From positions 32,001-96,000 of IMG/VR virus record IMGVR_UViG_3300025162_000024: a stretch of 64,000 bases of DNA; one strand, 5' to 3'. The position numbers and the translations under genes were made by a program. The stretch's first letter is position 1, and each line of letters begins with the position of its first letter. Positions 28,550-59,807 of the stretch are shown here, one piece after another. Under the pieces are notes generated by a model. That model was not told the DNA's origin. It worked only from the letters and a program-made list of their open reading frames with translations, and ran no database searches. The DNA is from a virus.

Positions 28550-29563
28550 TTAAGAAGGGTACGCATTGGACCGGCCCCTCTTGTACTCGGAGAGCATTGA
28601 CAATATGCAATCGGGATCGTGCAGTACCCCTGACTCAACATCTGCCCGTTCCGCACAATCACTACACCAGTATGCGCCAGACACAACGTCAAACTCGACA
28701 ATATTCTCACACAGTGTCTCTTCCAGCTGATCGATCAGGGCATCAGCCTCCTTCAGCCTGTACTCAGCCGTCTTACCAGCCTTGGCCATACGGAAGATGC
28801 CGCGAAGATCATCGCAGTTCTTGGCCTTGGAGAGCCTCCGGCACTCGTCACTCCCGCACTTTCCGGCTACGCACCCCGTACACACCCAATACTCGTCGGT
28901 CTCCGGGACCAGCTCGTAGGAGACCCCGTCGATCACCCCGGACCAGAGAACCTTTGGCTCGACCTTCTTCGCCCATTCGGCCAGCGACTTCTTAGCCTGC
29001 TCATCCGGTATCCGCTTCAAAGAGCTCGAATCCTCTGTGCGTGTGGCAGGCTCTGACTTCCCGTCATCCCGGTGGAAGACACCGGCGGGGAACTCGTAGA
29101 TCCCGTGACGACCCTCTCCGATATCGTAATACCGAGGCTTCTTCTCCCTCTCAGCCGCCCACCGGGCCATGATCCCCCTGGCCAACCTGAGCGAGATCGG
29201 GCGGATGCAACTGTTATCCTCTTCGGACAGGGCCGAGGCGATCCCCTCTTTCTGGTGGACGAGGCGGGCCGGGAACTCCCAGATCGCCCTGATCTCTTCG
29301 TCTGTGGTCGATGTAGACGCGTAGAACCGGACGGACTCTGCAGGCTTCCACGGGAATTCGGAGAGGAACGGGGCTCGAAGCACGTAGCTATCCCCGTACG
29401 CCCCCTTCAACAGGCACTGGCCGTCGTAAACCGCCAGGTCCTCGTAGGTGCACGGTCCGACGGCCAGCACCGGCAGCAGCCGGTCAATCCATACGATCTT
29501 GTCTCCAACACGGATCGGCTGACCCTGTTTGGGGTCGCCATTTGCATATGTAGGGGTCATCAT
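28550..29563 (-). CDS. RWY-repeat family protein (2 units + IDGV-Cys module)
   Basis: RFY..IWEFPA and RYY..IYEFPA units; WSGVIDGVSYE...CTGC; C-terminal CSDC..H..C. Confidence 0.75.
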   Translation of the reverse strand: MMTPTYANGDPKQGQPIRVGDKIVWIDRLLPVLAVGPCTYEDLAVYDGQCLLKGAYGDSYVLRAPFLSEFPWKPAESVRFYASTSTTDEEIRAIWEFPARLVHQKEGIASALSEEDNSCIRPISLRLARGIMARWAAEREKKPRYYDIGEGRHGIYEFPAGVFHRDDGKSEPATRTEDSSSLKRIPDEQAKKSLAEWAKKVEPKVLWSGVIDGVSYELVPETDEYWVCTGCVAGKCGSDECRRLSKAKNCDDLRGIFRMAKAGKTAEYRLKEADALIDQLEETLCENIVEFDVVSGAYWCSDCAERADVESGVLHDPDCILSMLSEYKRGRSNAYPS

Positions 29564-29574
29564 TTCTCCTTATC

Positions 29575-29667
29575 TCACGGCAGAATCCACCGCAACAAGT
29601 AAAGTACAAGTCCGGCCACCCCGGCCAGACTAACCAAGATCACGACTGCCTTCTCCACTCTGCTCAC
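29575..29667 (-). CDS. Single-TM micropeptide (30 aa)
   Basis: Hand translation from GTG: MSRVEKAVVILVSLAGVAGLVLYLLRWILP. Confidence 0.5.
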   Translation of the reverse strand: MSRVEKAVVILVSLAGVAGLVLYLLRWILP

Positions 29668-30089
29668 TTGGCCCTCGCCTTCTTCCACCGGGCTATCTGG
29701 GCCAAAGCCACCTTCTGAGAGATACGCTTGTCCTTAAACTCCTGGCACATCTCCTCAGGGCAAGTTGGCCATGATTCGCCGCGTGGGAAGTACACTTTTC
29801 GATCCGGGTAACTCCGAATAATGTCCCTACACCGATACCAGCGAAGAGCCGGCTTTGTAGTCTTCTTCCATGTCCGCAGGGCTCTCCCGATCTGGATAGC
29901 CAGATCCTTGGCCGCCGTAAGATCGAGGTTTAGGAGATTACCGTTGAATCCATGGGAGATAGCCAACCTATCGTCTGCAGTGAACTGTAGGCTTCCACAG
30001 AGACCAGTGCCTTTCAATGGGAAGCCCCATGTGACATTCCCCGCCCTCAAATATTCTCTCGTATACCGCTTAGAACTGCGTTTGGTCAT
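29664..30089 (-). CDS. RWY-repeat family protein (1 unit)
   Basis: LRWYRCRDIIRSYPD...ISQKVALAQIARW. Confidence 0.7.
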   Translation of the reverse strand: MTKRSSKRYTREYLRAGNVTWGFPLKGTGLCGSLQFTADDRLAISHGFNGNLLNLDLTAAKDLAIQIGRALRTWKKTTKPALRWYRCRDIIRSYPDRKVYFPRGESWPTCPEEMCQEFKDKRISQKVALAQIARWKKARAK

Positions 30090-30309
30090 TTTCGGCCTCC
30101 TCAGCCATCTGTTCTGCTATCCGCCAATCACGAGCCCTACGAGCTTCCCGGGCACGGTCATCCGCAGCCTGAATCTCCCTGCGGGCCTCCGCCGCCCGCC
30201 ACCCATCCTGGTAGTCGCGGGCATCCCTTTCCCATCCATAGTAAAGACGGCTGCCTGTACGGCCCAGCCCGTAATCATCAAAGCCCTGATCGTACGTCTT
30301 TCGGCTCAC
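30070..30309 (-). CDS. Hypothetical protein
   Basis: GTG start after AAGGAG; YDQGFDD...YQDGW. Confidence 0.55.
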   Translation of the reverse strand: MSRKTYDQGFDDYGLGRTGSRLYYGWERDARDYQDGWRAAEARREIQAADDRAREARRARDWRIAEQMAEEAENDQTQF

Positions 30310-30473: not shown

Positions 30474-30713
30474 TCAGCTCCTGAGCTTGACGGAGGTCTC
30501 CGCACTCTTCAGCAGGGTCTGCCCGGCCACGGTCAGCATGGTAACCCTCTGTGTGGACCCAGTACGTTCCAGTACAGTGTTGAGCAGGGCCGCCTGCTGG
30601 ACGACCGCCGAGTATACAGCATCCTCGCCCGCCGCATCATGGACGTTGCACGTGGTATGGAGCTCGTCACCCTCGGCCATCGTCCGGAGCTTCAGGATCT
30701 CTCTGTTCTTCAC
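30474..30713 (-). CDS. Hypothetical protein
   Basis: 79 aa; translationally coupled. Confidence 0.55.
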   Translation of the reverse strand: MKNREILKLRTMAEGDELHTTCNVHDAAGEDAVYSAVVQQAALLNTVLERTGSTQRVTMLTVAGQTLLKSAETSVKLRS

Positions 30714-31189
30714 TCTGACTCCGGGTAGCCCCTACGATACTTGGCGATCGCCTCACAGGTGCCCCGGTAAGACCCAGGGTAGGGACTAAAGCGATCCTCG
30801 ATCTCCCCGATCAGCTTATTGGCATCCGCCAGCTGCCGGTTGAGCCTGTCGTTGATACGACTCATAATCCATAGCCTACCCTCAGCCTGCGACATGCTCA
30901 CAAGCTCGTCGCTAGTCTCCGGAAATATACTAGGAGTGGTCCTACCGTCATAGTGGCAGACGCTGGCCGGGAACTCCCAAATCACCCAGGGAGGGTTACA
31001 ACCCAACTTCGATCGGTAGTAGCGTGGACCTTCCTCTTCCGCGGCCTTCCCGGCCAGCTCCTCCTTGATCTCCTTCTTCAACTCCTGGCCGTATGCGGTG
31101 ATCGCCTCGGCCAATCCATGGGCCTCCGGGACGAGCATACTGGTCTTGGTATAGATATCGTCGTACAACTTCTCGGTCTTCGTGTCCAT
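30710..31189 (-). CDS. RWY-repeat family protein (1 unit)
   Basis: PRYYRS..VIWEFPA...MSQAEG; AAGGAG SD before MDTK. Confidence 0.7.
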   Translation of the reverse strand: MDTKTEKLYDDIYTKTSMLVPEAHGLAEAITAYGQELKKEIKEELAGKAAEEEGPRYYRSKLGCNPPWVIWEFPASVCHYDGRTTPSIFPETSDELVSMSQAEGRLWIMSRINDRLNRQLADANKLIGEIEDRFSPYPGSYRGTCEAIAKYRRGYPESE

Positions 31190-31199
31190 CCCAGTCTCC

Positions 31200-31508
31200 T
31201 TATCTGGGCAGGGCCAGGGCCGCTGCCAGTTTGCATCCTTGGTCGTGGCCCTCCTCCATGGGAAAGCCACACTCGGGGCAGAACGAACTTCCGTACTCGC
31301 CACACGCATCAAGCCCAGGCTGCCACTCCACTGCTTTCAAGGCCTTTTCCATCGCCCTGATCTTCTTGTCGGCCGTGTCCAGCATCCTCCTCAGGTCCGC
31401 AATCCTCTTCTGCTGGCCGACATCAGCCTCCTCCAGCAGCTGGAGCCTGGACCGGGCACAGCCACTGAAATGAAGGTCTCCACGGCATTTCATGTCACTC
31501 ATCTTCAA
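31200..31508 (-). CDS. Coiled-coil + CxxC..H..C protein
   Basis: FCPECG..EEGHDQGCKL. Confidence 0.6.
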   Translation of the reverse strand: MKMSDMKCRGDLHFSGCARSRLQLLEEADVGQQKRIADLRRMLDTADKKIRAMEKALKAVEWQPGLDACGEYGSSFCPECGFPMEEGHDQGCKLAAALALPR

Positions 31509-32884: not shown

Positions 32885-33101
32885 CTGAACCCACCTTCCC
32901 CCATCTCCTAATGGCCTTCTTCATATCCTTCATGAGCACAGGGACATCCACGGTCTTCCTGACGATCTCATTGCCGCCAGTCCCATCCCTGCGTATAACG
33001 TCCACTACGAGCAACCCGGTTGTCTCGTTGAAGAAGAACGACAGGCTATGGCCGTTGGCCAGCTCTACGTAATGATTGTGTATGATGTTTTCTTCATCCA
33101 T
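32868..33101 (-). CDS. Hypothetical protein
   Basis: 77 aa; coupled to neighbours. Confidence 0.6.
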   Translation of the reverse strand: MDEENIIHNHYVELANGHSLSFFFNETTGLLVVDVIRRDGTGGNEIVRKTVDVPVLMKDMKKAIRRWGKVGSVDARD

Positions 33102-33309
33102 TGGCCTGCTTCTCCGTAAACGCTGTCAAGGTCTCCCTGAACGCCAGATTCTCTTCGCAGATCTCGGCCAACTCCGTGGCCTGCTGGATCTGCTTGAGCC
33201 ACCCGGGGGCCGCCGGGCAATCTGGCCAATTCGTATACTTCCGCTGGAACTCCGCAGCCTGCTGTCGGTAGTTAGCTGCCCGCTCCGCTATCCGCTTTGA
33301 ACTAGGCAT
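33094..33309 (-). CDS. Hypothetical protein
   Basis: 71 aa; GGAGG SD. Confidence 0.65.
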   Translation of the reverse strand: MPSSKRIAERAANYRQQAAEFQRKYTNWPDCPAAPGWLKQIQQATELAEICEENLAFRETLTAFTEKQANG

Positions 33310-33321
33310 TATCCTCCCATC

Positions 33322-33357
33322 AAAAGAGCCAGGCCCCAGACTGGCCGGGGCCTGGCT
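33322..33357 (-). terminator. Rho-independent terminator
   Basis: 11-bp stem agccaggcccc/ggggcctggct followed by cTTTT on the minus strand. Confidence 0.75.
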
Positions 33358-33450: not shown

Positions 33451-34713
33451 TTAGGCAGCCCAGTCCTCGAGCTGCTTGATCTTCTCATTTCGCTTGACGA
33501 GCTCAGCACTCTCCTCCTCGTTCAACTCTTTGAACTGAACCAGGCGAGTCTCGAGATCCTTGATCAACGTATCCCGCTCCTTGAGCAGCTGATCGTGGAG
33601 CTTGACGGTGACAAACTCTACATCACCCTGCACCGTACTGTAGGGATTCCTGATTCCGGCACGAATCACATGCATACCCTCTGAATCCTGGCGAACAGTT
33701 ATGCACGGGCTCTGCTCCGGATTCCAGACATTAGCCGGCTTCTTCGCCTTCTTCCACCCCGCGATCAGCTCTTCGGCCTTCTCGGCAGTGACCAGCTTGG
33801 CACCCCAGCCAATCGCTTCTTGCTCCGAGCACTCGCACGCTTCGCCCTCTGGAATACTGCAGCTGTAGAATCTGCCTTCGGGGAACGCACGTAGAGTGTT
33901 GTTATGCCTGAGCAGATACCAGCGGGTTGCCGGCTTCGGCTTCCACCCTGAGATGACTCTCTGGGCTTCCTCGGGTGTCACCTTCTCTGTCTTGTCCCGT
34001 ATAAGCCACCACTCACGGCCAACATGGGAGATCGCGGATCCATCTGGCTGGGAACAAATATAAAACATACGCCCCGGGTAGGTCCAGAGAACAGTCTTGT
34101 CAGAGCTCCGGTACCAGCGCTCGCCCGGCATCTGCTGAACACGCCAGGCGGCGATCATAGCCTTGGCATCTTCCTCCGGGATCAGCTCGCTCCCGTTGGT
34201 CTTGACCTCAGACTCAACGATAGCCACGCGGCCTTGCGGATAGTTCGACGTATAGAACTTACCGGCCGGGTACTCCCAGAGCAGATTCTCATCCTTCAGA
34301 TACCAGCGGATGGCCTCTACAGGCTTCGGAGTCCACTGAGCAATGAGCTCCTTGGCCCGCTCCTGGGTGACCTGAGGATGCCCGTCTCGGATCACTTCCC
34401 ACTCGGATACATAGCACTGGAAGCCGTCTGAACGCCCTGAACCATACGCCAGGCCGGCCGGGAACTCCCAGAGATACATCGAACTCGCGTACCAGCGGAC
34501 CAGGCTCCGACTTTCCCGTTTCCACACCTCGATCCTGGCCCTAGCCTCTTCAGCCGAGATCAGCTTATGCTTTCCCTTGTGGAAATCCTCAGTGTCCATG
34601 GCCAGCCCGCCCCCCGTGTTCCCCTTGTAGTAGAATCTCCGGGCAGGATATTCCCAGATCCCGTCATTGTCCCTCAGATACCAGCGGGTCTCTTCTGTTG
34701 TCTTGGTGTTCAT
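33451..34713 (-). CDS. RWY-repeat family protein (5 units + coiled coil)
   Basis: Five RWY..W.(Y/F)P..(I/V)(S/T).E.A...W units; reading frame continues past the TAA to 33373. Confidence 0.85.
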   Translation of the reverse strand: MNTKTTEETRWYLRDNDGIWEYPARRFYYKGNTGGGLAMDTEDFHKGKHKLISAEEARARIEVWKRESRSLVRWYASSMYLWEFPAGLAYGSGRSDGFQCYVSEWEVIRDGHPQVTQERAKELIAQWTPKPVEAIRWYLKDENLLWEYPAGKFYTSNYPQGRVAIVESEVKTNGSELIPEEDAKAMIAAWRVQQMPGERWYRSSDKTVLWTYPGRMFYICSQPDGSAISHVGREWWLIRDKTEKVTPEEAQRVISGWKPKPATRWYLLRHNNTLRAFPEGRFYSCSIPEGEACECSEQEAIGWGAKLVTAEKAEELIAGWKKAKKPANVWNPEQSPCITVRQDSEGMHVIRAGIRNPYSTVQGDVEFVTVKLHDQLLKERDTLIKDLETRLVQFKELNEEESAELVKRNEKIKQLEDWAA

Positions 34714-34736
34714 AGCAATCTCCTTTGTTTGGCATG

Positions 34737-34777: not shown

Positions 34778-36046
34778 CTAGGCCGACTTCTCGTTGATCT
34801 CTTTGAGCGTACCTTGCAGCTCGCGGATATGTCTGGCCTGGGCCAGTCCCCGATCAGTCAGATCCGAGATCTTCCTGCGAAGCTCTGTGTCCTGCTCTTT
34901 CTGAGCCTCCCAGCCGGCGAATACAGCTTTCGCCACATCCATCGAGATCTTCACATACTCGCGATCAGGGCCTGAGTAGACCGATTCGTGCTCATACCCA
35001 TAGAGCTTACCTCCCTTGGGCTCGTGCGGGCTGTAATAGGTGTGATCAGGGTAGGTCACGATATGCTGCCCGCCCGTCGCCAGATATGCCCGCTTCTCCT
35101 CGACCTTCGGAGCTCGCCACTCAGCGAGGAGCGCCTGAGCCTGCTCAGGAGTGATACTGAGGTACTGCGAACCCATATCTTTCTCTCCCCATTGGAGGGT
35201 ACGGCCATCGGCAGAGTATTCGGAGTACCCTTTACCGGCCGGGAACTCAACCAGAAACTTGTGGTCGGAGGTGATGAACCACCGGACCTTAGGGGCCTTC
35301 CACTCAGCGATCTGCTTCTCGAACTGCTCCCGACTGATCTGGGTGAAATCTTTGTTCTTAGAATAAACGGTCTCCGCCTCTTCCCCCGACAGTTTCACGC
35401 CATTCAGATTGTTCTGGCGGTAACAGATGCAGTCCGGGTACTCCACGATATTCCCAGTCACCTTCGACTGGTGATACCGCTTCGGAGCCCAGTCCGCCAG
35501 CTGCTTCTTGGCCTCCTCCGTAGAGATCCGGGCGTATCCACGCCATTTGCCGGAGATGACGTCGGACTCGGCCATGCACGTTGAATCCCCTGCCCTGGTC
35601 TCAGAGTTGTAGTACATGTTCGCCGGGTACATCACCAGGTGCAGCCCGTCATGAAACCTGTACCACCGTTCCTCCACTAGCTGGGTCGGAGACAGACGAT
35701 CGTCAATCGCCTGGTTGATCGCCTTGGTCAGCCGGGTGGCGGCCGATCCGTTGTAGCCATCCTGGGCCTCTGCCAACGCCATTTCAACCTGGTCTTTTAC
35801 CTTGTTCATGGACCTCTCCTTTATCCTTTGAAGTTTCTCGTATATCTGGGCCAGACGGTTGTCCTGCTTCCAAGACAACCGGCGTGACCGCCATGACCCG
35901 CTCAGGCTGAGGACGAACCCGACTTCCCAGTAGGTAAGGTCACGGTCCGCCCCCAGCGCACAATCCAGCATCTCACACTGCTCTGCAGTCACCTGGTATA
36001 TCCTGCCGGACAATGTCCGGCCCTGGATAGGTGTGGCTATTGCCAC
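34778..36046 (-). CDS. RWY-repeat family protein (4 units); may include a separate upstream gene
   Basis: Four units; internal AAGGAG SD before MNKVK. Confidence 0.8.
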   Translation of the reverse strand: MAIATPIQGRTLSGRIYQVTAEQCEMLDCALGADRDLTYWEVGFVLSLSGSWRSRRLSWKQDNRLAQIYEKLQRIKERSMNKVKDQVEMALAEAQDGYNGSAATRLTKAINQAIDDRLSPTQLVEERWYRFHDGLHLVMYPANMYYNSETRAGDSTCMAESDVISGKWRGYARISTEEAKKQLADWAPKRYHQSKVTGNIVEYPDCICYRQNNLNGVKLSGEEAETVYSKNKDFTQISREQFEKQIAEWKAPKVRWFITSDHKFLVEFPAGKGYSEYSADGRTLQWGEKDMGSQYLSITPEQAQALLAEWRAPKVEEKRAYLATGGQHIVTYPDHTYYSPHEPKGGKLYGYEHESVYSGPDREYVKISMDVAKAVFAGWEAQKEQDTELRRKISDLTDRGLAQARHIRELQGTLKEINEKSA

Positions 36047-37389
36047 AAAACTCGGACCAGCTGCTTGGTCTGAGCCAGCTGAAGCTCCTCCCGGAGATCG
36101 GACAGCTCCTCTTTGAGCTCGGAGACCTGCGTAGTCAGCTCGTTGATCTCATCCTCGTCCTCGTCCGCGGCCGTCTCGAGCTCGTCGATCTCGTCCTGGA
36201 GCCCGTTGTTCTCCTTGTGGAGCAGTTCGATCTGCTCCCGGAGCCCGGTACGCTCTAATCCCATCTCAGACAGGCGACGATCACTGTCCTTCAGAGCCGA
36301 CCGCAGGTAGGCCACATCCCCCTGAAGCCCTTCGATCTTCTCCTCGACAGCCGGCTGCTTGGGAAAGGCCCTCTGCTGTTCCCAGGCCTGGATCTGGGCA
36401 GCGGCCTCCTCGGCAGAGATCGGCTGATGGTTGGCATCTCTCTCAAGATCTCCTGCACGAACCGGACCATCGTAGGCATCCCAGTAGACACCTGTGCCGT
36501 TCGCGTACTTCCAGATCACACGGATAGGTCCGCCCACGCTCCGATACCAGTGCTCTTCCCGGGCCTTACGGGCATCTTCCCAGGCCTTGACCTGGGCCAT
36601 GCCCTCTTCTGCCGAGATCCGAACATGATAAGTGTCAAGCTCGTGGTCCGGCGCTGGGAGTGGCCCACAGGCCTTATTCCAGAACTCACCTTTTCCGTTC
36701 TGGTACCGCCAGACAACCGTACGATCGCAATCGGTATACCATCGCACCTCAGCGATCTTCCGGGCCTCTTCCCAGGTCTTGATCAGCATCTGGGCGTCCG
36801 AGGCCGCGATCGGAACTGTCATCAGTGACTCGTAGCAGCTTGAAGGTCTCGGACCGCCCCCTTCATTCCAGAACTCGCCCTCGCCCGCTACAAACCGCCA
36901 GATACCAGAGCGGTAGGTATCCGTGTACCAATGCTCTTCCCGGGTCTTGCGAGCATCTTCCCACGCCTTGAGCTGAGCCTGCCCCTCTTCTGCAGAGATC
37001 GGCAGGTGCCACGAGGCGGTCTCGTCATCCGTAGCCGTGAACGCGATGCGGTTCTTGTTCCACCACTCACCCTTGTGATCGGTATACCGCCAGATGGTCA
37101 GGCCCGTGACGTACCCGGTGTCCTCGCTCTTATACCAGCGTTCTTCTACGGGCTGGGGTGTCTCTCGGGTCAGCGGGCCGTACTGAACGAACTCCAGGCC
37201 ATTCCCGGTCCGGGCCCAGACCACTCCGCCATCCGGGAGGCCGAGGCACACGCCCAGCTCCTGCGAGAAGCACTCCACTTCGCCCATCTGGCCGAGGCTG
37301 GTCCGCACCACATGCCCGACTTCAACCGGCTGTCCGTTACGGACGCCGCGAGTATAGTAAGGACGCTCTGTCATATTCTTCGATTCCAT
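36037..37389 (-). CDS. RWY-repeat family protein (4 variant units + acidic coiled coil)
   Basis: WY..W(R/K)Y..GE.WN...ISAEE..AQ.KAWEDARK units; 36/40-nt repeat at 36551-36590 vs 36932-36971. Confidence 0.85.
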   Translation of the reverse strand: MESKNMTERPYYTRGVRNGQPVEVGHVVRTSLGQMGEVECFSQELGVCLGLPDGGVVWARTGNGLEFVQYGPLTRETPQPVEERWYKSEDTGYVTGLTIWRYTDHKGEWWNKNRIAFTATDDETASWHLPISAEEGQAQLKAWEDARKTREEHWYTDTYRSGIWRFVAGEGEFWNEGGGPRPSSCYESLMTVPIAASDAQMLIKTWEEARKIAEVRWYTDCDRTVVWRYQNGKGEFWNKACGPLPAPDHELDTYHVRISAEEGMAQVKAWEDARKAREEHWYRSVGGPIRVIWKYANGTGVYWDAYDGPVRAGDLERDANHQPISAEEAAAQIQAWEQQRAFPKQPAVEEKIEGLQGDVAYLRSALKDSDRRLSEMGLERTGLREQIELLHKENNGLQDEIDELETAADEDEDEINELTTQVSELKEELSDLREELQLAQTKQLVRVLWQ

Positions 37390-38008
37390 CTTCAAACCCT
37401 TTCTCGGCCATCTACGTGGCCTTAAGTTCATTCCACTAGATCTGCACGATCCTCAAACGCCTGGACAAGGTTGTCCCACTCATTCCTGGAATACTTGACA
37501 CTCACGTTCAGCCTGTAGGTAACCGTCACCTGGTCATAAGCCACATACCGCATGGGGCTCCCACCGCCCAGGTCAGGCCAGACCTTGGCCGGTAGATCCC
37601 GACAATCAGAACAGCGGACTCCACCACTCCCACGCAGCCGGCACCCGCACTGGGCACAGACCCGGCCACGGACGCTGCACTCTGCCTCGTACCGGGCCTC
37701 GCACTCATTGGAGCAAAACGGGAAGCGGTGGGAAGGGATCTTCCCACCGCACATCGGACACAAGTTCCTGTCCAACCGACCTCCTTGGGTAATCCGAATC
37801 CTCTGCGGCCTTGAGCATAGCGGCGATCGTCGCCTTATCAACAGTCGCCTCCCCCTGCATCGACCTATGCCACTCAAAGCAATTCTCAGAGCAGCAGAGG
37901 AATACCCCGTATTGGTCTTTCAAGAGATCTCCACACACGGGGCAAGTCCGCAGCCTGCCCTTCTGAACCTTCGGCGTTAAACTGCTTCGCCCTCGCATAA
38001 ACACCTCC

Positions 38009-41718: not shown

Positions 41719-43452
41719 TTAGCTAGGCTTGTTCACATAGAGCTGCTTGGAACCTGACCACGTACCTGACGTGAACCAGACTTGATCCCCACCGTATTTG
41801 GCGTCAACCCGGGAGACAACCATCTGGTACGGATCCAAACTCCTGGAGGAGGGCCTGAACCAGAGGGTATCCCCTATGTTGAACCGGCCGTCGGCACACT
41901 CATACTGACCCTGCTTCTTCTTCGGCTGGATAGGCTTGTTCACGTACAGATGTGAGGGTGTTGCGTACGTCCCCTCGGTCAGCCAAACCCTGCGACCACA
42001 TTCCATGTCTTCTACCCGCTCTACAACCACTTCTTCTGGATCCTTGTCAGGTTGGCTGTAGTCGAACCACAGGGTGTCACCCAGGTCAAATCGGCCATCG
42101 GCACACTCGTACTGCCCGTTCTTCTTCTTAGACTTGAGCTTGGTCAACTCCTCCTGCAGCTCGTCGATCTGGCTGATCCGCTCATGGGCATCATCCACCA
42201 GCTCATCGGCATCATCCTCCAGCTGCTTGATCTTCTCGCTCTTGGTCACAAGTGTGTCCTTGAGCTCCATGACCTGAGTCTGCAGCTGGGTGATAGTCTG
42301 GGCCTGCCGGTTGACCTTGCCCTGGAGGCCGCGGACCACCTCGTTCTCGCCCCGAATCTTCTGGGTCAGATCGTTGATCTGCACATGCTGCTCCAGATCA
42401 GACTTCTGGAACTCAGCGATCGTCTTGTACTGCTCAGAGTGCATGCGGTCAAGACTCTCGATCTCCTTGGCCTGCCTGGCGTTTTCATCCTTGAGCCTGC
42501 TTACGTGCAGCTCACAGGTGATCCCCGATGGTGGGTCTATCGCCTTGACCAGCTTGGCCAAGACCTCTGAATCTGGAGTCAAGCTTGGCGACGTCCACCG
42601 AACGCTGATATCCCCAGTGATCACCAACGGTGCAGAATCCGGGCACGACGCATACCGCCCAGCCGGCTGCCACCGGCTAAGTATTTCCTGGGCCTCCCGC
42701 ACCGAGAGCGGCTGACAGTCCCAGAGGATGCAGTCCTTTTCCGAGACGGGTACCTTGATCCCTTCAGGGACCAGCGTCTCGTGATACCCACGGGTGGCCG
42801 GGAACTCGTAGATCCGGCCAGTCTCCTTGTTCTGATACCAGCGAACTGCTTCGGTCCATGTCCGGCGGATGGCCTGGGCCTGAGCAGGGGTGATACTGAA
42901 GCAATTGTGGTCCGCCTTGACCTCCTGCTCAGTGGACGACGACTGGCACCCGTCCGTTCGATACGAGCGGCTGTAGTGAACGCCCTTAGGATACTCCCAG
43001 ATAAACATCAGCCCATCACTGGAGTAGAACCTGGGCTCTTCCTTCGGCCGGAAGTCGCCGGGGCCCAGCTGCTTGTGGCCATTCTTGATGCAGTCAAACT
43101 CGGTCCATGAGGTGCCACCCCCGTTGATCTCGCCAGTCTTATCGTCACAGAACCTGGCGTCCGGATATTTCCGAACGTACCCGCTCTCTTCCGCGTACCA
43201 CCGTACCGGCTCGGACCACGATCGCCGAACGGCCTGAGCCTGCTCCTGGGTAATCCGGAAGACACCGGAGTAGCCCAGTACGGTCTGTTCGGAGATCGCA
43301 CTGCTCGTGTAATCAGCACTGTAGGCGTTCGCAGCCGGGTACTCCCAGACGTACGCCAGGCTCTTGCAGGTATAGAACCGCGGCTCTTCTCTGTGCTTGA
43401 GCACGCTAACCACGCAGCAGCCATTTCCACAATTGCAATCACTTTTAGCCAT
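41719..43452 (-). CDS. RWY-repeat family protein (4 units + coiled coil + 2 CADG units)
   Basis: Four R(W/F)Y..(Y/F)P units; YECADGRF(D/N)(L/I)GDTLWF x2; AAGGAG SD before MAKS. Confidence 0.85.
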   Translation of the reverse strand: MAKSDCNCGNGCCVVSVLKHREEPRFYTCKSLAYVWEYPAANAYSADYTSSAISEQTVLGYSGVFRITQEQAQAVRRSWSEPVRWYAEESGYVRKYPDARFCDDKTGEINGGGTSWTEFDCIKNGHKQLGPGDFRPKEEPRFYSSDGLMFIWEYPKGVHYSRSYRTDGCQSSSTEQEVKADHNCFSITPAQAQAIRRTWTEAVRWYQNKETGRIYEFPATRGYHETLVPEGIKVPVSEKDCILWDCQPLSVREAQEILSRWQPAGRYASCPDSAPLVITGDISVRWTSPSLTPDSEVLAKLVKAIDPPSGITCELHVSRLKDENARQAKEIESLDRMHSEQYKTIAEFQKSDLEQHVQINDLTQKIRGENEVVRGLQGKVNRQAQTITQLQTQVMELKDTLVTKSEKIKQLEDDADELVDDAHERISQIDELQEELTKLKSKKKNGQYECADGRFDLGDTLWFDYSQPDKDPEEVVVERVEDMECGRRVWLTEGTYATPSHLYVNKPIQPKKKQGQYECADGRFNIGDTLWFRPSSRSLDPYQMVVSRVDAKYGGDQVWFTSGTWSGSKQLYVNKPS

Positions 43453-43480
43453 TTTCTTCTCCTTTTGGGTTGAATCACTT

Positions 43481-43795
43481 CTAGTACGGACGATCCTCGT
43501 CCTCCCACGGTAGGTCATCAACAGCCTCTCCCGCATCCCACTCCAGGCCCCTGCTCATAGCCCGAGGCTCGCTATCCTCCGTCTGCCCCATGTTCAGAGT
43601 CTCGCACAGCTCGTCTATCTCCTCATCGGTCGGCAGGCTGAGCTCCTCATCCGTGAAATACATCTGGACCATTTCATCGCAGAGCATGTCGCCCCGAAGA
43701 TCCTGAAACATCCTGAGAGACATGAGCACAGTAGCCAACAGCTTAGGACTGAGCTTTACTGGCTTGTCCTTTCCTACTTGAACCTTAGTCGACAT
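43481..43795 (-). CDS. Acidic hypothetical protein
   Basis: 104 aa; AGGAGG SD. Confidence 0.65.
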   Translation of the reverse strand: MSTKVQVGKDKPVKLSPKLLATVLMSLRMFQDLRGDMLCDEMVQMYFTDEELSLPTDEEIDELCETLNMGQTEDSEPRAMSRGLEWDAGEAVDDLPWEDEDRPY

Positions 43796-54640: not shown

Positions 54641-55574
54641 TGCTCACTCCTTGTTCATCCACAGGCGGATCCACCTGTCCATCGATCTTCACCTCTCCCT
54701 TGCCCATCCAACTGCACCAGACCCGTTCAGCCCTACGCGGTAGCTTCGTATGCCCCTGACTACTCCGATTAGGAACGTCCAGGGCCAGCCAACCCCAGGG
54801 GAGGGCTTCTTCATACAGCTGGCTGGGAGCCCCCATGATCATCACCAAGTGGCCCTCTGCGGCCCTCGCTTGGGCCAGCCCCAACATCTCCCGATGACGA
54901 TCGTCGGACATCTCTCGCTGGCCAAAGATCCTCGTACTGGTCCTACACGACTTCACATACGGAGGATCCAGCAGGTAGAGGAACGGGCCTGGGAACATCG
55001 TGAGCCTGATGCTCATCACTCTGCTGAAGTCCTGGCAGGTCACATTGGCCCCTTTGAGGACAGCGGCATACTCATCCAGATCTCGTAGAAACGTGTTCCA
55101 CGCATGGAGACTCTCGGGCTCTCCACCCCGCAATCGCTTAGCCTCACAGAATCCTCCCATCAGCCCGCCACGGCTAAACCGGCGGACGACTGTTGAGACG
55201 ATCGCCGTGTGCAACACATCTGCGGTCTCCCCCGCATCTCTCATTCGCCGATATTCCGTGCGATATGTCAGAAAGGTGGGTTTGTCGTAGGTCAGAGGGA
55301 GGAGGGCCGCTTTGTACTTGGCGTATAGCAGGGGCTCTGCCAGGCACTGAAAGATCGAGGCCAGGAACGGATCCACATCGTTCACCACGCGACGAACGCC
55401 GGGAGGAGCGTTAAACACGATACTCCCCCCGCCACAGAACGGATCGACCAGCGTCGAATAGGGGTGGCCCCTGGCCAGGTCCAGGATCCTCCGGCAGGTG
55501 TAGAACCGACCCCCATGGGTCTTGACCACCGGCCGATATTTTGCTCGCGTAAAGGTCAATATCTTCTTCGGCAT
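54588..55574 (-). CDS. DNA adenine methyltransferase (Dam-like)
   Basis: HGGR, DPFCGGGS, NDVD and catalytic DPPY. Confidence 0.85.
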   Translation of the reverse strand: MPKKILTFTRAKYRPVVKTHGGRFYTCRRILDLARGHPYSTLVDPFCGGGSIVFNAPPGVRRVVNDVDPFLASIFQCLAEPLLYAKYKAALLPLTYDKPTFLTYRTEYRRMRDAGETADVLHTAIVSTVVRRFSRGGLMGGFCEAKRLRGGEPESLHAWNTFLRDLDEYAAVLKGANVTCQDFSRVMSIRLTMFPGPFLYLLDPPYVKSCRTSTRIFGQREMSDDRHREMLGLAQARAAEGHLVMIMGAPSQLYEEALPWGWLALDVPNRSSQGHTKLPRRAERVWCSWMGKGEVKIDGQVDPPVDEQGVSNGQEKTEDDSGVQGGPV

Positions 55575-55580
55575 AGCGAT

Positions 55581-56099
55581 CTACCCTCCTTTCTCAGAGT
55601 CGGTTTCCCATCCGGGGATGACCGCCCGCATCTTCGGCCCGTTCTCCCTGAACCACTTCGAGTCAATCACCCGCAGTCGGACCAGTGGGTGATATTTTGC
55701 CATCCGCTTGAGCTTGGTCTTGCTCTTAGGGTCGAGCCAACCTTTTACTTCGTGATAGATTATTGCTCCATCTCGCTCTGTGACCCGGAAGTCTGGAAGG
55801 TAGGACCGGACCCCTCTGCGGATCTTCTCGAACCAGAAGGTCTCCGGTTCGTGAGCCCAGCCTACGATCTGGCCCTGGTCGACCAGGAACTGGAGGTAGC
55901 AAGCATAGTTGTACTCCCAGCGGCTGCGAAAGAAGATCTTCTTCCCGGCAATCTCCCGCCAACCCGCTTTACTCGTGTGCGTCCCGCCCTTGGTTTGTCT
56001 GAAGTTCATAGCGGCCCATAATTGTACTGGGGTGATCTGGTCTCCTTTCTCCAGCCTAGGAAAACTGGGATATACGCCAAAACAAGAGCGGCGCGACAC
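55581..56099 (-). CDS. PD-(D/E)XK endonuclease (DUF1064/TnsA-N-like)
   Basis: FRSRWE...HEP..F...YLPDF...HEVKG. Confidence 0.8.
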   Translation of the reverse strand: MSRRSCFGVYPSFPRLEKGDQITPVQLWAAMNFRQTKGGTHTSKAGWREIAGKKIFFRSRWEYNYACYLQFLVDQGQIVGWAHEPETFWFEKIRRGVRSYLPDFRVTERDGAIIYHEVKGWLDPKSKTKLKRMAKYHPLVRLRVIDSKWFRENGPKMRAVIPGWETDSEKGG

Positions 56100-56130
56100 A
56101 GTATGTCGCGCCGCTCTACACGTCAGCCGG

Positions 56131-57432
56131 TTACTTCTTCAAGCTCGCTTCGAGCTTCCAGAGGTCAAGAAGCTTATGAGCGTCCTCGGCCGAGATCAGC
56201 TTGCAGCACCGCTGGCAGTTCCTGGTCAGGTAGGACTCCTCGACAGCGTTACTTGTGCCACTCAGGCACCACTTCGCATAGAACATATTGCCAGGATACT
56301 TCCGCAGCTCTGTCGACCCGTGATAGTACCAGCGCTCCTCTGGCTTCTTCCAGCTCTCGATAAGCCTACGAGCCTCTTCGGCCGTCACCCGCTTGCAGCA
56401 GGTGAGAGCGGTTACCGCTTTCTCCTCTGCGAACGCGTCGAACCCGCCCGTGCAGTTCTTGGAATAGAACTTCTTGGACGGGAACAGCCAAAGGCAGTTG
56501 TCTGTGGAGCACAGATACCAGCGTTCCTCGGGCTCCGCCTTCTTCGGCTGCCAGCTCTCGAGGAGCTTATGTGCCTCGTCAACCGAGATTCGATCGTTGG
56601 GATATAGCGAGTCCTCGGTCTCGATGGCGTAGACCGGCTCTCCCTTGGGGATACAGCAGCTGTAGAATATGCCAGCCGGGTACACCCGTAGACATCCGCA
56701 GGACTTGTACCAGCGTTCGGTGGGCTCCGCTTTCTTCACCTTCTCAGCCTGTGCTCTAGCCCACCCGGCGATCATCTCGCGGGCCTTGGCCGGAGATACA
56801 CGCTGGTTCTTCCACGTGGTGATAAGCGACCGCTCATCCGAACTGTTAGAATAGCCCTCGGGGGTAGCTGCATCGTATGTCTTCTGCTCTGGGAACGACC
56901 GCAGACTGAGCTTTCCCGACCACTCTGAGGTGTCCAGAAGCCACCGCTCTGGCTGGGACGCCCACCAGCCTTCGATCTTCTCAAGAGCCTCTTTCTCGGA
57001 GATGCTCTCGTAGTTCAGAGTGATCAGACCTTCCTCAGTGGACGCGGCGTATAACCCGGCTGGCGTGCCCTTCGTGTGACAGATCTTTGAAGGGTAGGTC
57101 CAGAGAGCCCCGTTCCCAGTGTACCACCGGGAAACCCCCTGGAGGGTCCATGCGGCGATGATCCTGGTGGCCTGTTCGGACGTAACCTCTTTATGGCTTG
57201 ATTGCACCTGTTGCTCGGTGTTAGTCTCTGGATGTGCGCTGGGAGCGGTCCGCGTATACTTCATGGCCTTCGGATAAACCCAGAGGATCCCGTCGCTTGT
57301 GTCCAGATACCAACGGGGCTCTTCTCGGGCCTCTTTGGCCTTTTTACAGCCATCGATGATCTTCTGGGCCTCGGCCGACGAGTCCTGATACCGATGAACG
57401 TTATCCACGTATTTGTAAGCTTCCTGAACCAT
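56131..57432 (-). CDS. RWY-repeat family protein (6 units)
   Basis: Six RW(Y/L)..L..(Y/F)P..(I/V)(S/T).E.A...W units. Confidence 0.85.
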   Translation of the reverse strand: MVQEAYKYVDNVHRYQDSSAEAQKIIDGCKKAKEAREEPRWYLDTSDGILWVYPKAMKYTRTAPSAHPETNTEQQVQSSHKEVTSEQATRIIAAWTLQGVSRWYTGNGALWTYPSKICHTKGTPAGLYAASTEEGLITLNYESISEKEALEKIEGWWASQPERWLLDTSEWSGKLSLRSFPEQKTYDAATPEGYSNSSDERSLITTWKNQRVSPAKAREMIAGWARAQAEKVKKAEPTERWYKSCGCLRVYPAGIFYSCCIPKGEPVYAIETEDSLYPNDRISVDEAHKLLESWQPKKAEPEERWYLCSTDNCLWLFPSKKFYSKNCTGGFDAFAEEKAVTALTCCKRVTAEEARRLIESWKKPEERWYYHGSTELRKYPGNMFYAKWCLSGTSNAVEESYLTRNCQRCCKLISAEDAHKLLDLWKLEASLKK

Positions 57433-57433
57433 G

Positions 57434-57961
57434 CTAAGCTCCTTTCACACGAACAATCCAATTGCCGGCCGACACGACTTCTGGAACACCCAGAACCTCT
57501 TGTACGGCTTTCATCACTCCGGGCCAGCCCTCTACGTAATCGTGGCCCCCGATATACCCACCTGCCTTCACCTTGGGCAGCCAAAGCCCCGAATCCTGCT
57601 TGACCGCCTCGTAGGTGTGTGTCGCATCGATGTAAACAAAATCCTGGCTTCCGTCCAGGATCTTATGAGATGCCTCGAGGCTCGACATCTTCATCTTGAA
57701 CACATTCTCCAACGGCTTCGTCCGCCGGTCGAAGATTGCCTCAATCTCGGCCATGGGGCAGCAGGAGGACGCCGGGTCCCCCGCATCATACCCAAGCTCC
57801 CAGCTGTCCACGGCACACACCGAGAGCATGTACTTGGCGAAAATACAGGTACTCCAGCCAGCATACGAGCCGACCTCGACCATCCGCCCACCCCGGACCA
57901 GATCGAGAAGTGGTTTTAAGCCATCTTCTCTCCCCGAGTCATCCATCCACGCAGTATCCAT
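57434..57961 (-). CDS. Class I SAM-dependent methyltransferase (Methyltransf_24-like)
   Basis: VEVGSYAG, VDSW, FVYIDATHTYE and GGHDY. Confidence 0.85.
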   Translation of the reverse strand: MDTAWMDDSGREDGLKPLLDLVRGGRMVEVGSYAGWSTCIFAKYMLSVCAVDSWELGYDAGDPASSCCPMAEIEAIFDRRTKPLENVFKMKMSSLEASHKILDGSQDFVYIDATHTYEAVKQDSGLWLPKVKAGGYIGGHDYVEGWPGVMKAVQEVLGVPEVVSAGNWIVRVKGA

Positions 57962-57993
57962 TCACTGTCCTTTCAAATTGTTTCGTGATTATA

Positions 57994-58425
57994 TCAATCT
58001 CCTTTTACTGAGTCCTCGTAGATCTCCGCCATCGGATGTGCCTCTCTCCAGGCGGCGACCGCCCTGGCCAGTGTCGGATGCCTGGCCGAGAACTGCCCGT
58101 CTCTCTTCTTTGGGTGGAACATGAGCTTCAGGTGTCGCATACACGGGTTTACCTCGACGCGGATCGCCATATCATGGGCTAGAAAAACCAACCTGGTCAA
58201 CATGTCAAAGTCGAACGTGGATAGGCATCCATCGTCCCAGAGCAGCTCTTGCCAGATGGGATTGGCCCAATCGACTTTAGCCAGGTGCTTCTCCTGAATG
58301 TGATGCAGGCCTACCCATCGGTCCAGAAGGTCGGCCACCCTGAGCCCTGATTCGCTAGGGGATCGGCCGACCTTTAGGCACCGCTTGACATGAGAAAGTA
58401 CTCTGGTCATTCGAGGCTCGAGCAT
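57994..58425 (-). CDS. Hypothetical protein
   Basis: LSTFDFDMLTRLVFLAHDMAIRVEV...RHPTL. Confidence 0.7.
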   Translation of the reverse strand: MLEPRMTRVLSHVKRCLKVGRSPSESGLRVADLLDRWVGLHHIQEKHLAKVDWANPIWQELLWDDGCLSTFDFDMLTRLVFLAHDMAIRVEVNPCMRHLKLMFHPKKRDGQFSARHPTLARAVAAWREAHPMAEIYEDSVKGD

Positions 58426-59807
58426 CAGCGAGACCTCAGGTTGTGCTCAAACCGCCAGTTCTCCAGAAGCTTGAGGGCCTCGTCCTGGGTCACTTTTCGA
58501 TAAGAGCCACACTGAGTTGCAGTCTCGTCCATCCCGGTCGGCGACCCATCTGGCTGCGAGTAGGCATATCGCATGCCGGCCGGATACTTGAACAGACTGC
58601 CCAGCGAGTGCAGATACCAGCGGGGCTCCTCGGGCTGTACTGCAGACCGGACGAAGATCACCTGGTTATTGCCACAGTGGAACGTTTTGGCAACAGGACT
58701 AACCCAGGGACCCTGGCAGGTGCTGAGGAACGTGCATCCCGCACACTTCCACCGAGCGTACTGAGGGCCTGAGGTGGGCTCGGGCCGTGTCTCGTACTGA
58801 ACACCGTCGATGATCCCGGTCCATTTGGGCTTGGCCTCAGCCTCTCTCTTGGCCTTTTCCTCGTCCCACTTGGCAATCATCTCCCGAGCCTTCTCAGTGG
58901 TCACCCGGTGGGCTGTGGACTCGGCTACCCCCTTCACCCAGTTAGATTCCGGGACCGTGATCGTATCACCCTCAGGCTTGAGCGAACTGTAGAAGATGGC
59001 CGCCGGATACGCCACGAGACTATAGGACGTAGCATACCACCGCACATCCTGCTTCATCCAGAGCCCTTCCCTGAGCTGGTCTGCCTGCTTAGAATCGATC
59101 CGGACGATGCCTCCCTGCAGGATGTACGACTCTTCGGATGCTGAGGCCTTGGCCCCCTCAGGATTGCCAGTATAGACCCGGGAGGCCGGAAACTGCCCAA
59201 ACCAGGCGATCCGCTCGCTCTTGTACCAGCGTTCGACAGTCGGCTGGCTCTTGGCCTCGGTCCACGCCCTGATCAGCATCTGAGCCGTTTTGGCCGGGAT
59301 CAACTTGGTCGTAGATAGGAGCTTTACTCTCTCCTCAGACTCTAAGGATACATCGGCCTCGGGGAACATCGCTGTGTACACCTTATGCGCTGGATACTCT
59401 CTGAGCAGCTCGCCGTCGTCCGTGTAGTACCAGCGGGACGTCTCCTTCCGCCAGCCATCCAGGATCCGGATGACCGTGTCATATGAGATCTCTTCGTCAG
59501 TCCCGCTCACGAATGATTCGATGGCCGTAGCCGGATACCCCTTAGGATCGCTCCGGGTATAGCACGTAGCCTGGGGATATACCCTGAGCAGCTCGCCGTC
59601 CGGTGATCGGTACCAGCGGTAACCCTCAGGCTTGGCCGGGGCCAGGACCTCTCGAGCCACCTGGTACATGAGACTGACCTCAGCAGCGGCCAGCTTCTGG
59701 TATCCCTCGAACTCTGTGAGATCCCCGGACTCCACCCTCGTCCCGAGATTGGCATAGGTGTTGGTCAAAACCTGAACCTTCATCTGATCCACTGATCCAT
59801 TAGACAT
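58425..59807 (-). CDS. RWY-repeat family protein (5 units + IDGV-Cys module)
   Basis: Five RWY units; WTGIIDGVQYE...CAGC; AAGGAG SD. Confidence 0.85.
   Translation of the reverse strand: MSNGSVDQMKVQVLTNTYANLGTRVESGDLTEFEGYQKLAAAEVSLMYQVAREVLAPAKPEGYRWYRSPDGELLRVYPQATCYTRSDPKGYPATAIESFVSGTDEEISYDTVIRILDGWRKETSRWYYTDDGELLREYPAHKVYTAMFPEADVSLESEERVKLLSTTKLIPAKTAQMLIRAWTEAKSQPTVERWYKSERIAWFGQFPASRVYTGNPEGAKASASEESYILQGGIVRIDSKQADQLREGLWMKQDVRWYATSYSLVAYPAAIFYSSLKPEGDTITVPESNWVKGVAESTAHRVTTEKAREMIAKWDEEKAKREAEAKPKWTGIIDGVQYETRPEPTSGPQYARWKCAGCTFLSTCQGPWVSPVAKTFHCGNNQVIFVRSAVQPEEPRWYLHSLGSLFKYPAGMRYAYSQPDGSPTGMDETATQCGSYRKVTQDEALKLLENWRFEHNLRSR

Follow-up and report, generated by a model that had tools for sequence, protein, structure and literature searches.

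Multi-paralog expansions are known from large viruses, for which the ankyrin-repeat families are a comparable case. The RWY unit, a domain of ∼58 aa, occurs 35 times in 10 genes of the virus record studied here (124,318 bases) and the family makes up 9.5% of that record. RWY is a new domain family inside the known phage habit of orphan-domain expansion. Unlike expanded orphan domains such as the N4 gp3-like families it is predicted as a beta-meander with a helix and not as all-helical, and shows no sequence relation to them. In contrast to one-domain-per-gene expansions, its copies are found mostly in tandem inside proteins (up to nine) and are fused to coiled coils.

As far as it is characterized in PMC10834534, lambda Ea22 is a tetrameric protein that has a coiled coil in addition to its C-terminal and short N-terminal domains; its gene is among the earliest transcribed and its host ligand is given there as unknown. 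RWY proteins resemble such early-region proteins of temperate phages (Lar fusions, Ead/Ea22-like proteins), which join a variable N-terminal module, a coiled-coil oligomeriser and a small alpha/beta domain. However, Ea22 contains no tandem arrays, and no RWY protein gave a threshold Pfam match to Ead_Ea22 or Lar. The Ead/Ea22-like family (PF13935) was detected neither in the nine proteins of the window (the whole 64,000-nucleotide stretch of viral DNA analysed; E≤1) nor in 10 relatives outside the phage (E≤0.1). ESM Atlas led from these outside relatives to Ead/Ea22-like clusters with a score of 0.81, the cut-off asked for being 0.9.

Further close candidates are the N-terminal domain of the Bacteroides fragilis protein 2ra8_A, the WGR domain (PF05406) and Tis1, which confers immunity to the type VI effector Tas1 (PDB 6ox6 chain B). 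No match to the Pfam WGR model was obtained with the nine proteins (E≤1) or with 30 units taken singly (E≤10), whereas E. coli YehF, run as positive control, was matched at E 1.2e-16. When the 30 units were compared with an 11-row WGR alignment built here, hhalign gave a probability of just 0.6%. Two wide VIA fold searches showed no PUR/Whirly-like beta4-alpha chain among the 50 matches listed by each. No cognate toxin gene adjoins the RWY genes among the nameable neighbours, which are ThyX, methyltransferases, a glycosyltransferase, exonucleases, an LRR protein, a helicase and a polymerase; many neighbours have no assigned family and might include a novel toxin.

The first-pass annotation had described about 32 copies of the unit in nine genes. 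The seed HMM drew its 16 units from g33451, g56131 and g58425 alone; it was searched against all 915 ORFs (six frames, stop to stop, minimum 40 aa) of the whole window. At i-E<1e-3, 25 domains were identified: the 16 seeds and nine in four non-seed genes, namely four in g34778, none of whose units had entered the HMM, three in g41719 and one each in g29664 and g28550. After four rounds of iteration, 32 domains (i-E 1.6e-21 to 9.8e-7) were found in nine of the 915 ORFs, all on the minus strand and none on the plus strand. Copy number, the nine minus-strand ORFs with their positions, and the counts per gene (2, 1, 1, 5, 4, 4, 4, 6 and 5 from g28550 to g58425) agreed with the earlier description; the ends 31189, 37389 and 43452 given there are internal ATG starts and not ORF ends. 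Public gene calls also start at the internal ATG for two of these genes (450 and 577 aa). With either HMM, no domain at i-E<1e-3 was obtained from 915 reversed or 4,575 shuffled ORFs; the iterated HMM gave i-E<0.05 for two shuffled ORFs.

Pairwise identity among units is 26% on average (range 12-46%). In the hhalign control, one half of the units matched the other with a probability of 99.2%. The four variant units of g36037 matched the other 26 with a probability of 97.4% (E 1.3e-11) and, judged by profile similarity, are genuine family members. Two units are truncated, unit 2 of g41719 and that of g30710, the latter being the weakest member with a seed-HMM i-E of just 0.16. Coordinates and domain layouts are given in Table 1.

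Table 1. RWY genes, their units and other features; positions are those of the window unless stated otherwise.
Feature	Position	Strand	Description
g28550	28550..29563	-	337 aa; N-terminal beta module, 2 RWY units, Cys-rich module, coiled-coil-like segment
g28550 units	29153-29332, 28967-29137	-	iterated HMM
hairpin after g29664	29609..29631	-	10-bp stem, 33 nt past stop
g29664	29664..30089	-	141 aa; one C-terminal RWY unit, net charge +7
g29664 unit	29679-29846	-	seed HMM i-E 6.4e-10
g30710	30710..31312	-	200-aa ORF; 159 aa from ATG at 31189; one truncated RWY unit without C-terminal helix motif, then coiled-coil-like segment
g30710 unit	30869-31027	-	i-E 9.8e-7, profile positions 1-52
hairpin after g33451	33327..33357	-	13-bp stem, T-rich tail, 94 nt past stop
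g33451	33451..34713	-	420 aa; 5 RWY units; 98-aa C-terminal region, coiled-coil-like end
g33451 units	34516-34689, 34327-34500, 34138-34311, 33937-34122, 33748-33927	-	iterated HMM
g34778	34778..36046	-	422 aa; 125-aa N-terminal region, 4 RWY units, short C-terminal coiled coil
g34778 units	35483-35671, 35294-35482, 35111-35287, 34904-35095	-	iterated HMM
g36037	36037..37431	-	464-aa ORF; 450 aa from ATG at 37389; N-terminal beta module, 4 variant RWY units, long C-terminal coiled coil
g36037 units	36955-37143, 36766-36936, 36574-36747, 36376-36555	-	iterated HMM
ThyX	39638-40330		neighbour of RWY genes
g41719	41719..43536	-	605-aa ORF; 577 aa from ATG at 43452; Cys-rich N-terminus, 4 RWY units, coiled coil, two C-terminal beta modules
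g41719 units	43210-43383, 43048-43206, 42850-43035, 42664-42846	-	iterated HMM
GT2 glycosyltransferase	45477-46256		neighbour of RWY genes
LRR protein	46673-47425		neighbour of RWY genes
RNase T-like exonuclease	52087-52782		neighbour of RWY genes
D12 adenine methyltransferase	54588-55574		neighbour of RWY genes
hairpin after g56131	56085..56117	-	15-bp G+C-rich stem, T-rich tail, 14 nt past stop
g56131	56131..57432	-	433 aa; 6 RWY units
g56131 units	57145-57318, 56959-57132, 56755-56949, 56545-56718, 56344-56526, 56155-56337	-	iterated HMM
remnant helix, lost unit	57334..57378	-	g56131 N-terminus, aa 19-33; C-terminal helix of unit
Methyltransf_24	57434-57961		neighbour of RWY genes
g58425	58425..59807	-	460 aa; 5 RWY units; Cys-rich insert of 78 aa separating units 4 and 5
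g58425 units	59445-59621, 59256-59438, 59052-59234, 58860-59045, 58452-58625	-	iterated HMM
tenth RWY gene	G000:C1:110375-111697 of whole record, outside window		3 units

The conserved scaffold consists of R2, W3, Y4, Y15, P16, Y21, G28, E35, I46, A51 and W58. Conservation reaches 60% or more in 12 of the 60 profile columns; the remaining ones, with ∼3 bits of entropy and 10-15 residue types each, are nearly free, in agreement with the fixed aromatic scaffold and variable intervening residues noted at first pass. AlphaFold modelled a single unit as a beta-meander with a C-terminal helix (pLDDT 96.0, pTM 0.79), and units 1-3 of g33451 together gave a pLDDT of 90.8 and a pTM of 0.64. In the predicted fold, a meander of four or five short beta strands is accompanied by a short helix and, at the C-terminus, by an amphipathic one. 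The aromatic positions are spaced like the strands and like one face of a helix (A51, I55, W58), the pattern expected of core residues. Net charges of the units span -4 to +7 (mostly -4 to +3, one unit +7), therefore their surfaces differ; the whole proteins are near neutral (pI 5.0-7.4). No TM-like segment was detected, the maximum Kyte-Doolittle 19-residue mean being 1.09.

The RWY unit, predicted to fold on its own, is a domain not described before. It had already been reported as unrecognised, and searches of Pfam, PHROGs, NCBIfam and PDB sequences indeed returned no match, while the Foldseek and VIA fold libraries listed no clear one. The family is very rare, being known essentially from one phage lineage and 10 metagenomic proteins, and these outside relatives share the phage's set of partner modules. 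Solenoid or propeller repeats of the classical kind were considered and rejected: no Pfam repeat model (ankyrin, TPR/Sel1, LRR, MORN, WD40, Kelch) matched in the repeat regions, and each unit of 58 aa is modelled as a whole domain that has a core of its own.

The units are arrayed in tandem, as had been proposed, with linkers of 0-12 residues (mostly 0-8). A crude heptad scan placed coiled-coil-like segments C-terminal to the units in 6 of the 10 genes. The statement that several members end in coiled coils holds to this extent, but not strictly for g28550 and g41719, because further modules follow the coiled coil there. Weak matches of g41719 to coiled-coil families were also observed. For the C-terminal coiled coil of g36037 (aa 350-464), self-association modelling resulted in a score of 0.42 compared with 0.00 for the best of three controls; 21 of 30 solved homo-pairs, but none of 23 single chains, came up to the mark. 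Residues 362-460 were modelled as a parallel, in-register homodimer with a contact agreement of at least 97% and a partner pLDDT of 85, which lends weight to the oligomerisation suggested earlier. Partner modules recur as well. The Cys-rich insert of g58425 is homologous to aa 200-258 of g28550 (E 2.8e-7), a module that also matches outside protein P0020 (E 8.6e-5). The N-terminal module of g28550 matches outside protein P0018 (E 2e-7), and the C-terminal modules of g41719 recur in P0018 (E 6e-10) and in ORF 15487-16614.

A comparison of copy number in related phages, suggested at first pass, revealed that the counterpart of g56131 in near-identical strains is a 655-aa allele with nine units, compared with six here. 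The remnant helix in g56131 gives a weak partial HMM match (profile positions 48-63) and has a Cys in place of the family's invariant Trp; in the 655-aa allele, the equivalent helix ends the third of three extra units. Units are thus gained or lost block-wise between nearly identical strains. Otherwise, strain-level variants differ by few scattered substitutions and one mosaic tract, and in strain variant P0061 the invariant Trp of one unit is replaced. Because these variants are almost identical, there is no sign of ongoing arms-race hypervariation. The basis of the ‘repertoire’ proposed earlier is confined to old divergence between paralogous units.

Where neighbours could be named, the RWY genes are located among replication, nucleotide-metabolism and DNA-modification genes and not among virion genes. 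Two of them flank a methyltransferase, with a Dam-like methyltransferase just downstream, and the tenth has a DnaB-like helicase on one side and a family-A DNA polymerase on the other. This context fits an intracellular accessory role without identifying it. ORF 15487-16614, with the C-terminal module of g41719, adjoins a tail-spike-like gene (13463-15385, a pectate-lyase-like minor tail or pre-neck-appendage gene), and the shared module makes a virion role conceivable for at least g41719.

The explanation preferred here, although tentatively, is that RWY arrays are soluble intracellular multivalent binder arrays, serving as accessory host-interaction proteins. About 12 residues would hold the unit together and the rest would be free to vary; the phage would use it as a generic scaffold. 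The 35 copies, old and strongly diverged, are strung one to six per protein (nine in the sister strain) on very short linkers and combined with shuffled modules (N-terminal beta, Cys-rich, C-terminal beta and parallel coiled coils), the coiled coils being predicted to pair or bundle the chains. Each unit would present a different surface. We infer that the units bind ligands; the most likely site of action is the interior of the infected cell, where the proteins would serve takeover or counter-defence as arrays of multivalent binders or adaptors.

Alternatively, the arrays could be parts of the virion surface or fibres, with aromatic-rich beta domains on coiled-coil stalks acting as carbohydrate or cell-surface adhesins like decoration or whisker proteins. 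The conserved aromatics (W3, Y4, Y15, Y21, W58), the coiled coils behind the arrays, the g41719 module beside a tail/appendage gene and the variable unit number point in this direction, copy-number variation being common in surface repeats. However, such a role is unlikely: the nameable neighbours of all 10 genes lie outside head or tail blocks, the repeat region matched no PHROG structural category, and the aromatic positions are placed as core residues would be. It is likewise improbable that the units are nucleic-acid- or replisome-binding modules (WGR, PUR or Sm-like) that organise or protect phage DNA during replication. Both WGR comparisons argue against this, pI and unit charges are not basic as in DNA binders, and unconserved surface positions would be unexpected with a common nucleic-acid ligand.

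Restriction alleviation would be the expected role if the unit were a zinc-less descendant of a Lar-type zinc ribbon. Three of the 10 outside relatives (P0017, P0021, P0022) indeed carry an N-terminal Cys ribbon directly before the RWY unit, with weak matches to Pfam Lar_restr_allev (E 0.045, 1.5e-4 and 0.019, respectively), and for P0017 a Lar cluster (0.84) is among the ESM Atlas leads. The methyltransferases around two RWY genes, the 3-5 Cys in some units and weak Foldseek matches to the zinc-ribbon-like UPF0434 proteins 2hf1 and 2jr6 are also in line with it. Yet these Lar matches are all below the Pfam cut-off of 28.6 bits and N-terminal to the unit, the Atlas scores are under 0.9, and PF14354 matched no RWY protein or unit and nothing in the whole virus record at E≤1. 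hhalign of 30 units against four Lar-like N-termini, a shallow target alignment, gave 0.1%. In addition, the unit has no conserved Cys column: Cys is the commonest residue in none of the 60 profile columns, and 13 of 32 units lack it altogether. A Lar origin is thus very unlikely. That the arrays are evolutionary debris, repeat expansions without selected function, is hardly credible. One allele lost three units without destruction of the gene and P0061 tolerates a replaced Trp, but at 26% mean identity the same 12 scaffold positions and open frames are kept throughout, the family occupies a large share of the record, the domain is retained in outside relatives, and the folds are predicted with high confidence.

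If the RWY units are binders, as preferred here, they would be a compact natural scaffold whose few fixed residues tolerate almost any surface, of relevance to phage-host biology and as a design scaffold; the phage would spend nearly a tenth of its known genome on one family, and host proteins or defence systems could be screened with 35 defined surfaces. Whatever its function, the RWY unit adds a confidently modelled domain unnamed in current libraries. The most far-reaching reading, speculative and rather doubtful, is that the arrays are phage ‘poly-inhibitor’ proteins, in which each unit would be an independent, immunity-protein-like module with its own target among the defence effectors or signalling proteins of the host. 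Through tandem arrangement and coiled-coil pairing, the ten genes would then form a broad-spectrum, high-avidity counter-defence panel of 35 specificities, tuned to the local host population by gain and loss of units as in the alleles of nine and six.

Hairpins were observed downstream of three RWY genes. The one after g33451 closes the gene trio g36037-g34778-g33451, and that after g56131 has the longest minus-strand stem within 45-62 kb.

The nine ORFs reported for the repeat in the first-pass annotation were all present in the window, and the ~58-aa RWY unit could be recognized in them by eye as R-W-Y ... Y-P ... Y ... G ... E ... I-S-x-E-E-A ... I ... W. A seed HMM made from 16 units of three genes was run against the complete set of 915 six-frame ORFs of 40 aa or longer in the window. 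At i-E<1e-3 it detected 25 units, of which nine lay in four genes absent from the seed. The iterated HMM identified 32 units, and the nine ORFs that contain them are without exception encoded on the minus strand; the total matches the earlier estimate of about 32 copies, with identical counts for every gene. No domain was detected at i-E<1e-3 in the controls (915 reversed and 4,575 shuffled ORFs). When one half of the unit set was compared with the other half, hhalign gave a probability of 99.2%, and the units of g36037 (RWY genes are designated by their start in the window), previously set apart as a variant, proved to be true homologues of the other units (97.4%, E 1.3e-11). Searching the whole record added a tenth gene with three units, giving a total of 35 units in ten genes; of the length of the record, 9.5% belongs to these genes and 5.0% to the units themselves.

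In the 60-column profile of the unit, few columns are kept and the rest vary, as expected from the proposed aromatic scaffold with differing intervening residues. Strongly kept are R2, W3 (97% aromatic), Y4, Y15 (100% aromatic), P16, Y21, G28, E35 (94%), I46 (100% hydrophobic), A51 and W58, and columns 12 and 55 are hydrophobic in every unit. The remaining columns have an entropy of ~3 bits and hold 10-15 residue types each, and the mean pairwise identity of the units is 26%. With an input alignment composed entirely of 30 paralogous units, AlphaFold2 predicted the single unit with a mean pLDDT of 96.0 and a pTM of 0.79; the predicted chain forms three to five short strands, continues through a short helix and a further strand, and closes with a helix at the C-terminus. 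The spacing of A51, I55 and W58 along the sequence corresponds to one helix face, which suggests that these residues pack in the core. A stretch of three units of g33451 was modelled with a pLDDT of 90.8 and a pTM of 0.64, from which it follows that the units fold independently, and the mutual orientation of neighbouring units is probably at least partly defined. Linkers between units are mostly 0-8 residues long. The net charge per unit ranges from -4 to +7, and the whole proteins are near neutral with a pI of 5.0-7.4.

The domain had been described as unrecognized, and indeed it is new to every library searched. In Pfam, the repeat was unmatched when whole RWY proteins were used, and the 30 single units at E<=10 hit seven families, each matching just one of the 30 units. 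PHROGs and NCBIfam returned nothing except coiled-coil noise on the window proteins P0003 and P0004, and the search of PDB sequences with the unit profile gave one row with an E-value of 0.24. Foldseek against the PDB yielded no matches at E<=0.001 for either the single-unit or the three-unit model. Against BFVD there were likewise none at E<=0.001, the best being an uncharacterised 68-aa protein of Cronobacter phage CR3 (E 0.26, probability 0.91). Two compact neighbours recurred in the fold searches across both models. Because the N-terminal domain of 2ra8 is WGR-like, membership in the WGR family was tested by hhalign using E. coli YehF (annotated PF05406, confirmed with E 1.2e-16) together with diverse WGR sequences, and was not supported (probability 0.6%). 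Three relatives from outside this virus showed weak Lar matches before their unit, and therefore a zinc-less Lar-type ribbon was also considered; hhalign gave 0.1%, there is no conserved Cys column, and PF14354 (Lar) had no matches in this phage. By these tests, the unit belongs to neither family. No description of an RWY motif, domain or repeat was found in the literature searched, and none of the 12 of 36 term matches shown for PMC7824862 dealt with a repeat of this kind.

In the RWY proteins the units are accompanied by a small set of other modules, which are recurrent as well. An N-terminal beta module is common to g28550 and the outside protein P0018 (E 2e-7), and a Cys-rich module to g28550, g58425 and the outside relative P0020 (E 2.8e-7 and 8.6e-5). 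Two copies of a C-terminal beta module are present in g41719, and the module is also found in P0018 (E 6e-10) and, several times over, in ORF 15487-16614 (blastp E 1.5e-9 to 7e-6 against the g41719 module), for which no Pfam or PHROG family was found. This ORF (minus strand, 375 aa) adjoins a tail-spike-like gene, and its copies are of the ~65-aa beta module that ends g41719.

That several members end in coiled coils was borne out in part: a crude scan for heptads placed coiled-coil-like segments behind the arrays of six of the ten genes, and g36037 and g41719 had weak matches to coiled-coil families in library searches. Complex modelling covered the dimer of one coiled coil, residues 350-464 of g36037. 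This was predicted as a parallel, in-register homodimer with a score of 0.42 compared with 0.00 for the best of three controls; among the references, 21 of 30 solved homo-pairs attained the mark used, as did none of 23 single chains. Runs agreed in at least 97% of contacts, with a pLDDT of 85. Since coiled coils are a textbook case, the model shows the likeness of the g36037 C-terminus to such a homodimer and is not a proof.

The unit profile was searched against 1.84 billion representative proteins at E<=0.001, which resulted in 23 matches. Eight came from the window itself or from clusters sharing at least 90% identity with its proteins. Another five were discarded as unrelated repeat proteins, since each matches a portion of the profile repeatedly (P0014, P0025, P0026 and P0030, which were inspected, and P0027). 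P0014 (1013 aa) is Cys-rich, has ~14 near-perfect repeats of ~70 aa matching profile positions 11-47, and looks like an unrelated false positive. The other ten (P0017-P0024, P0028 and P0029) are true outside relatives with one or two units each, and several of them share the layout zinc ribbon, RWY unit, in some a Cys module, and coiled coil. The arrangement of P0018 is like that of g41719, and P0029 is the counterpart of the g36037 variant. Viral contigs contained no match for P0005, P0017, P0018, P0029, P0023 or P0024. For P0021 the sole match was L010:805-1125 (+), a stand-alone Lar-like zinc-ribbon ORF on an otherwise unrelated viral contig, which is 47% identical to the P0021 N-terminus and has no RWY unit; ribbon and RWY unit are thus separable modules. 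Neither metagenome contigs nor genome contigs gave anything with A2 or P0017, and none of the ten outside relatives was located on a contig. Among 50,697 phage records, tblastn with P0005 and P0017 found no cultured phage that has the domain, and blastn of 33451-37431 against phages gave no match. The ESM Atlas had no usable match for P0005 and leads for P0017 that were all below 0.9, and the profile of the 30-unit alignment found five clusters among longer proteins, every one the window's own.

Many contigs, up to 124 kb in length and drawn from three data sources, encode proteins at least 90% identical to those of the window, the differences being a few scattered substitutions. In the variant P0058, unit 2 of g36037 contains a mosaic tract of ~35 residues, which looks like the product of recombination with a diverged allele, and in P0061 the invariant Trp of the family is changed to Arg in unit 4 of g41719. 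The comparison of copy number in relatives, which had been proposed as a check, revealed the clearest difference between strains, which lies in g56131: a length of 655 aa and nine units were found for two members of the cluster, whereas the window allele has 433 aa and lacks a 226-aa segment bearing three units. Of the third extra unit it retains the last helix only, with Cys for Trp, and there is a 4-aa linker indel. This third extra unit is 58% identical to window unit 3, whereas every other nearest-neighbour pair has an identity of 28-46%, frequently with its two units in different genes. The expansion is therefore old; it involved the duplication of at least one block of three units, and blocks are still being gained or lost.

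The window spans bases 32001-96000 of a linear IMG/VR virus record (124,318 bases; CheckV completeness 61%), and judged from its genes the virus is a tailed phage. Among cultured phages, Salmonella phage Arash and Vibrio phages (181-188 kb) come nearest, yet its terminase is only ~25% identical to theirs, and 118 of 147 genes lie on the minus strand in a crude gene call. Every named neighbour of the window RWY genes is non-structural, further ones being DUF6378 and an RNase T-like exonuclease, with DUF1064-like and MmcB-like matches below the Pfam cut-off. Expansion of orphan small domains in non-structural regions is a known habit of large phages. The two methyltransferases, the glycosyltransferase and ThyX hint at DNA modification by the phage. 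The neighbouring protein with clear leucine-rich repeats (LRR) belongs to the same non-structural block, and such proteins are uncommon in phages; its 115-aa N-terminal part had no family, and a hidden RWY or WGR-like domain in it was rejected, as none was seen by eye or matched by HMM in the six-frame search.

Coordinates of phage hallmark genes, neighbours of the RWY genes and the replication region (positions prefixed G000:C1 refer to the whole record)
Feature	Position	Strand	Remark
Minor-tail or pre-neck-appendage-like protein	13463-15385		Beside ORF 15487-16614
ThyX	39638-40330		Neighbour
GT2 glycosyltransferase	45477-46256		Neighbour
LRR protein, 250 aa	46673-47425	-	LRR_4, E 5.8e-21
D12 N6-adenine methyltransferase	54588-55574	-	Brackets g56131 with Methyltransf_24
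Methyltransf_24	57434-57961	-	Between g58425 and g56131
Large terminase	61836-63752	+	PHROG 675, E 6.6e-34; Pfam GpA_ATPase
Replication module	G000:C1:107010-119319		Family-A DNA polymerase with 3'-5' exonuclease, DnaB-like helicase, DEAD/ResIII helicase, SbcC/SMC-like ATPase
Tenth RWY gene	G000:C1:110375-111697		Embedded between DnaB-like helicase and family-A DNA polymerase; SbcC-like and DEAD-box proteins near

The RWY proteins would be soluble, intracellular, oligomerising arrays of small domains, each with a core that is fixed and surfaces that are free to vary. Together with the replication and DNA-modification context, the features of the arrays favour, tentatively, a reading as multivalent binders or adaptors with an accessory role in host interaction. 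A role in the virion as fibre or adhesin, to which the module common to an RWY gene and a gene near the tail spike points, is considered unlikely, and so is a nucleic-acid or replisome function, with which the genomic context and the topology are consistent. Descent from a Lar-like restriction-alleviation protein failed every test run and is improbable, and it would be very surprising if the genes were functionless debris.

Secreted or membrane proteins were rejected because a TM-like segment was not found, and an acidic DNA mimic of the Ocr/ArdA type because of the pI and unit charges. A hypervariable, DGR-like repertoire was rejected on account of the near-identical strain variants, which also argue against a fast arms race at present. 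The anti-defence decoy or sponge role suggested in the first-pass annotation is a speculative possibility. The domain family is of interest for the size of the genomic investment, a fold predicted well without a structural relative, the tandem-plus-coiled-coil design and the block-wise change of unit number between strains; the rarity of the domain limits its general weight.

Terminator-like sites were not above shuffles in two scans (11 vs 9.6±3.2 and 10 vs 10.9±3.1), nor were promoter-like sites (9 vs 6.4±2.5 and 7 vs 6.8±2.4). What stands out is a set of three hairpins with T-rich tails, the longest on the minus strand in 28-62 kb, which are found shortly downstream of g56131, g33451 and g29664; these genes may close transcription units. 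In the signal scan a sigma-70-like site was seen at 60225-60253 (+) and a hairpin at 60415-60432 (+). Two stretches of ~550 bases each in the tightly packed block, 49493-50043 and 32885-33450, have no ORF of at least 80 aa on the coding strand, and the latter holds a 13-bp hairpin after g33451.
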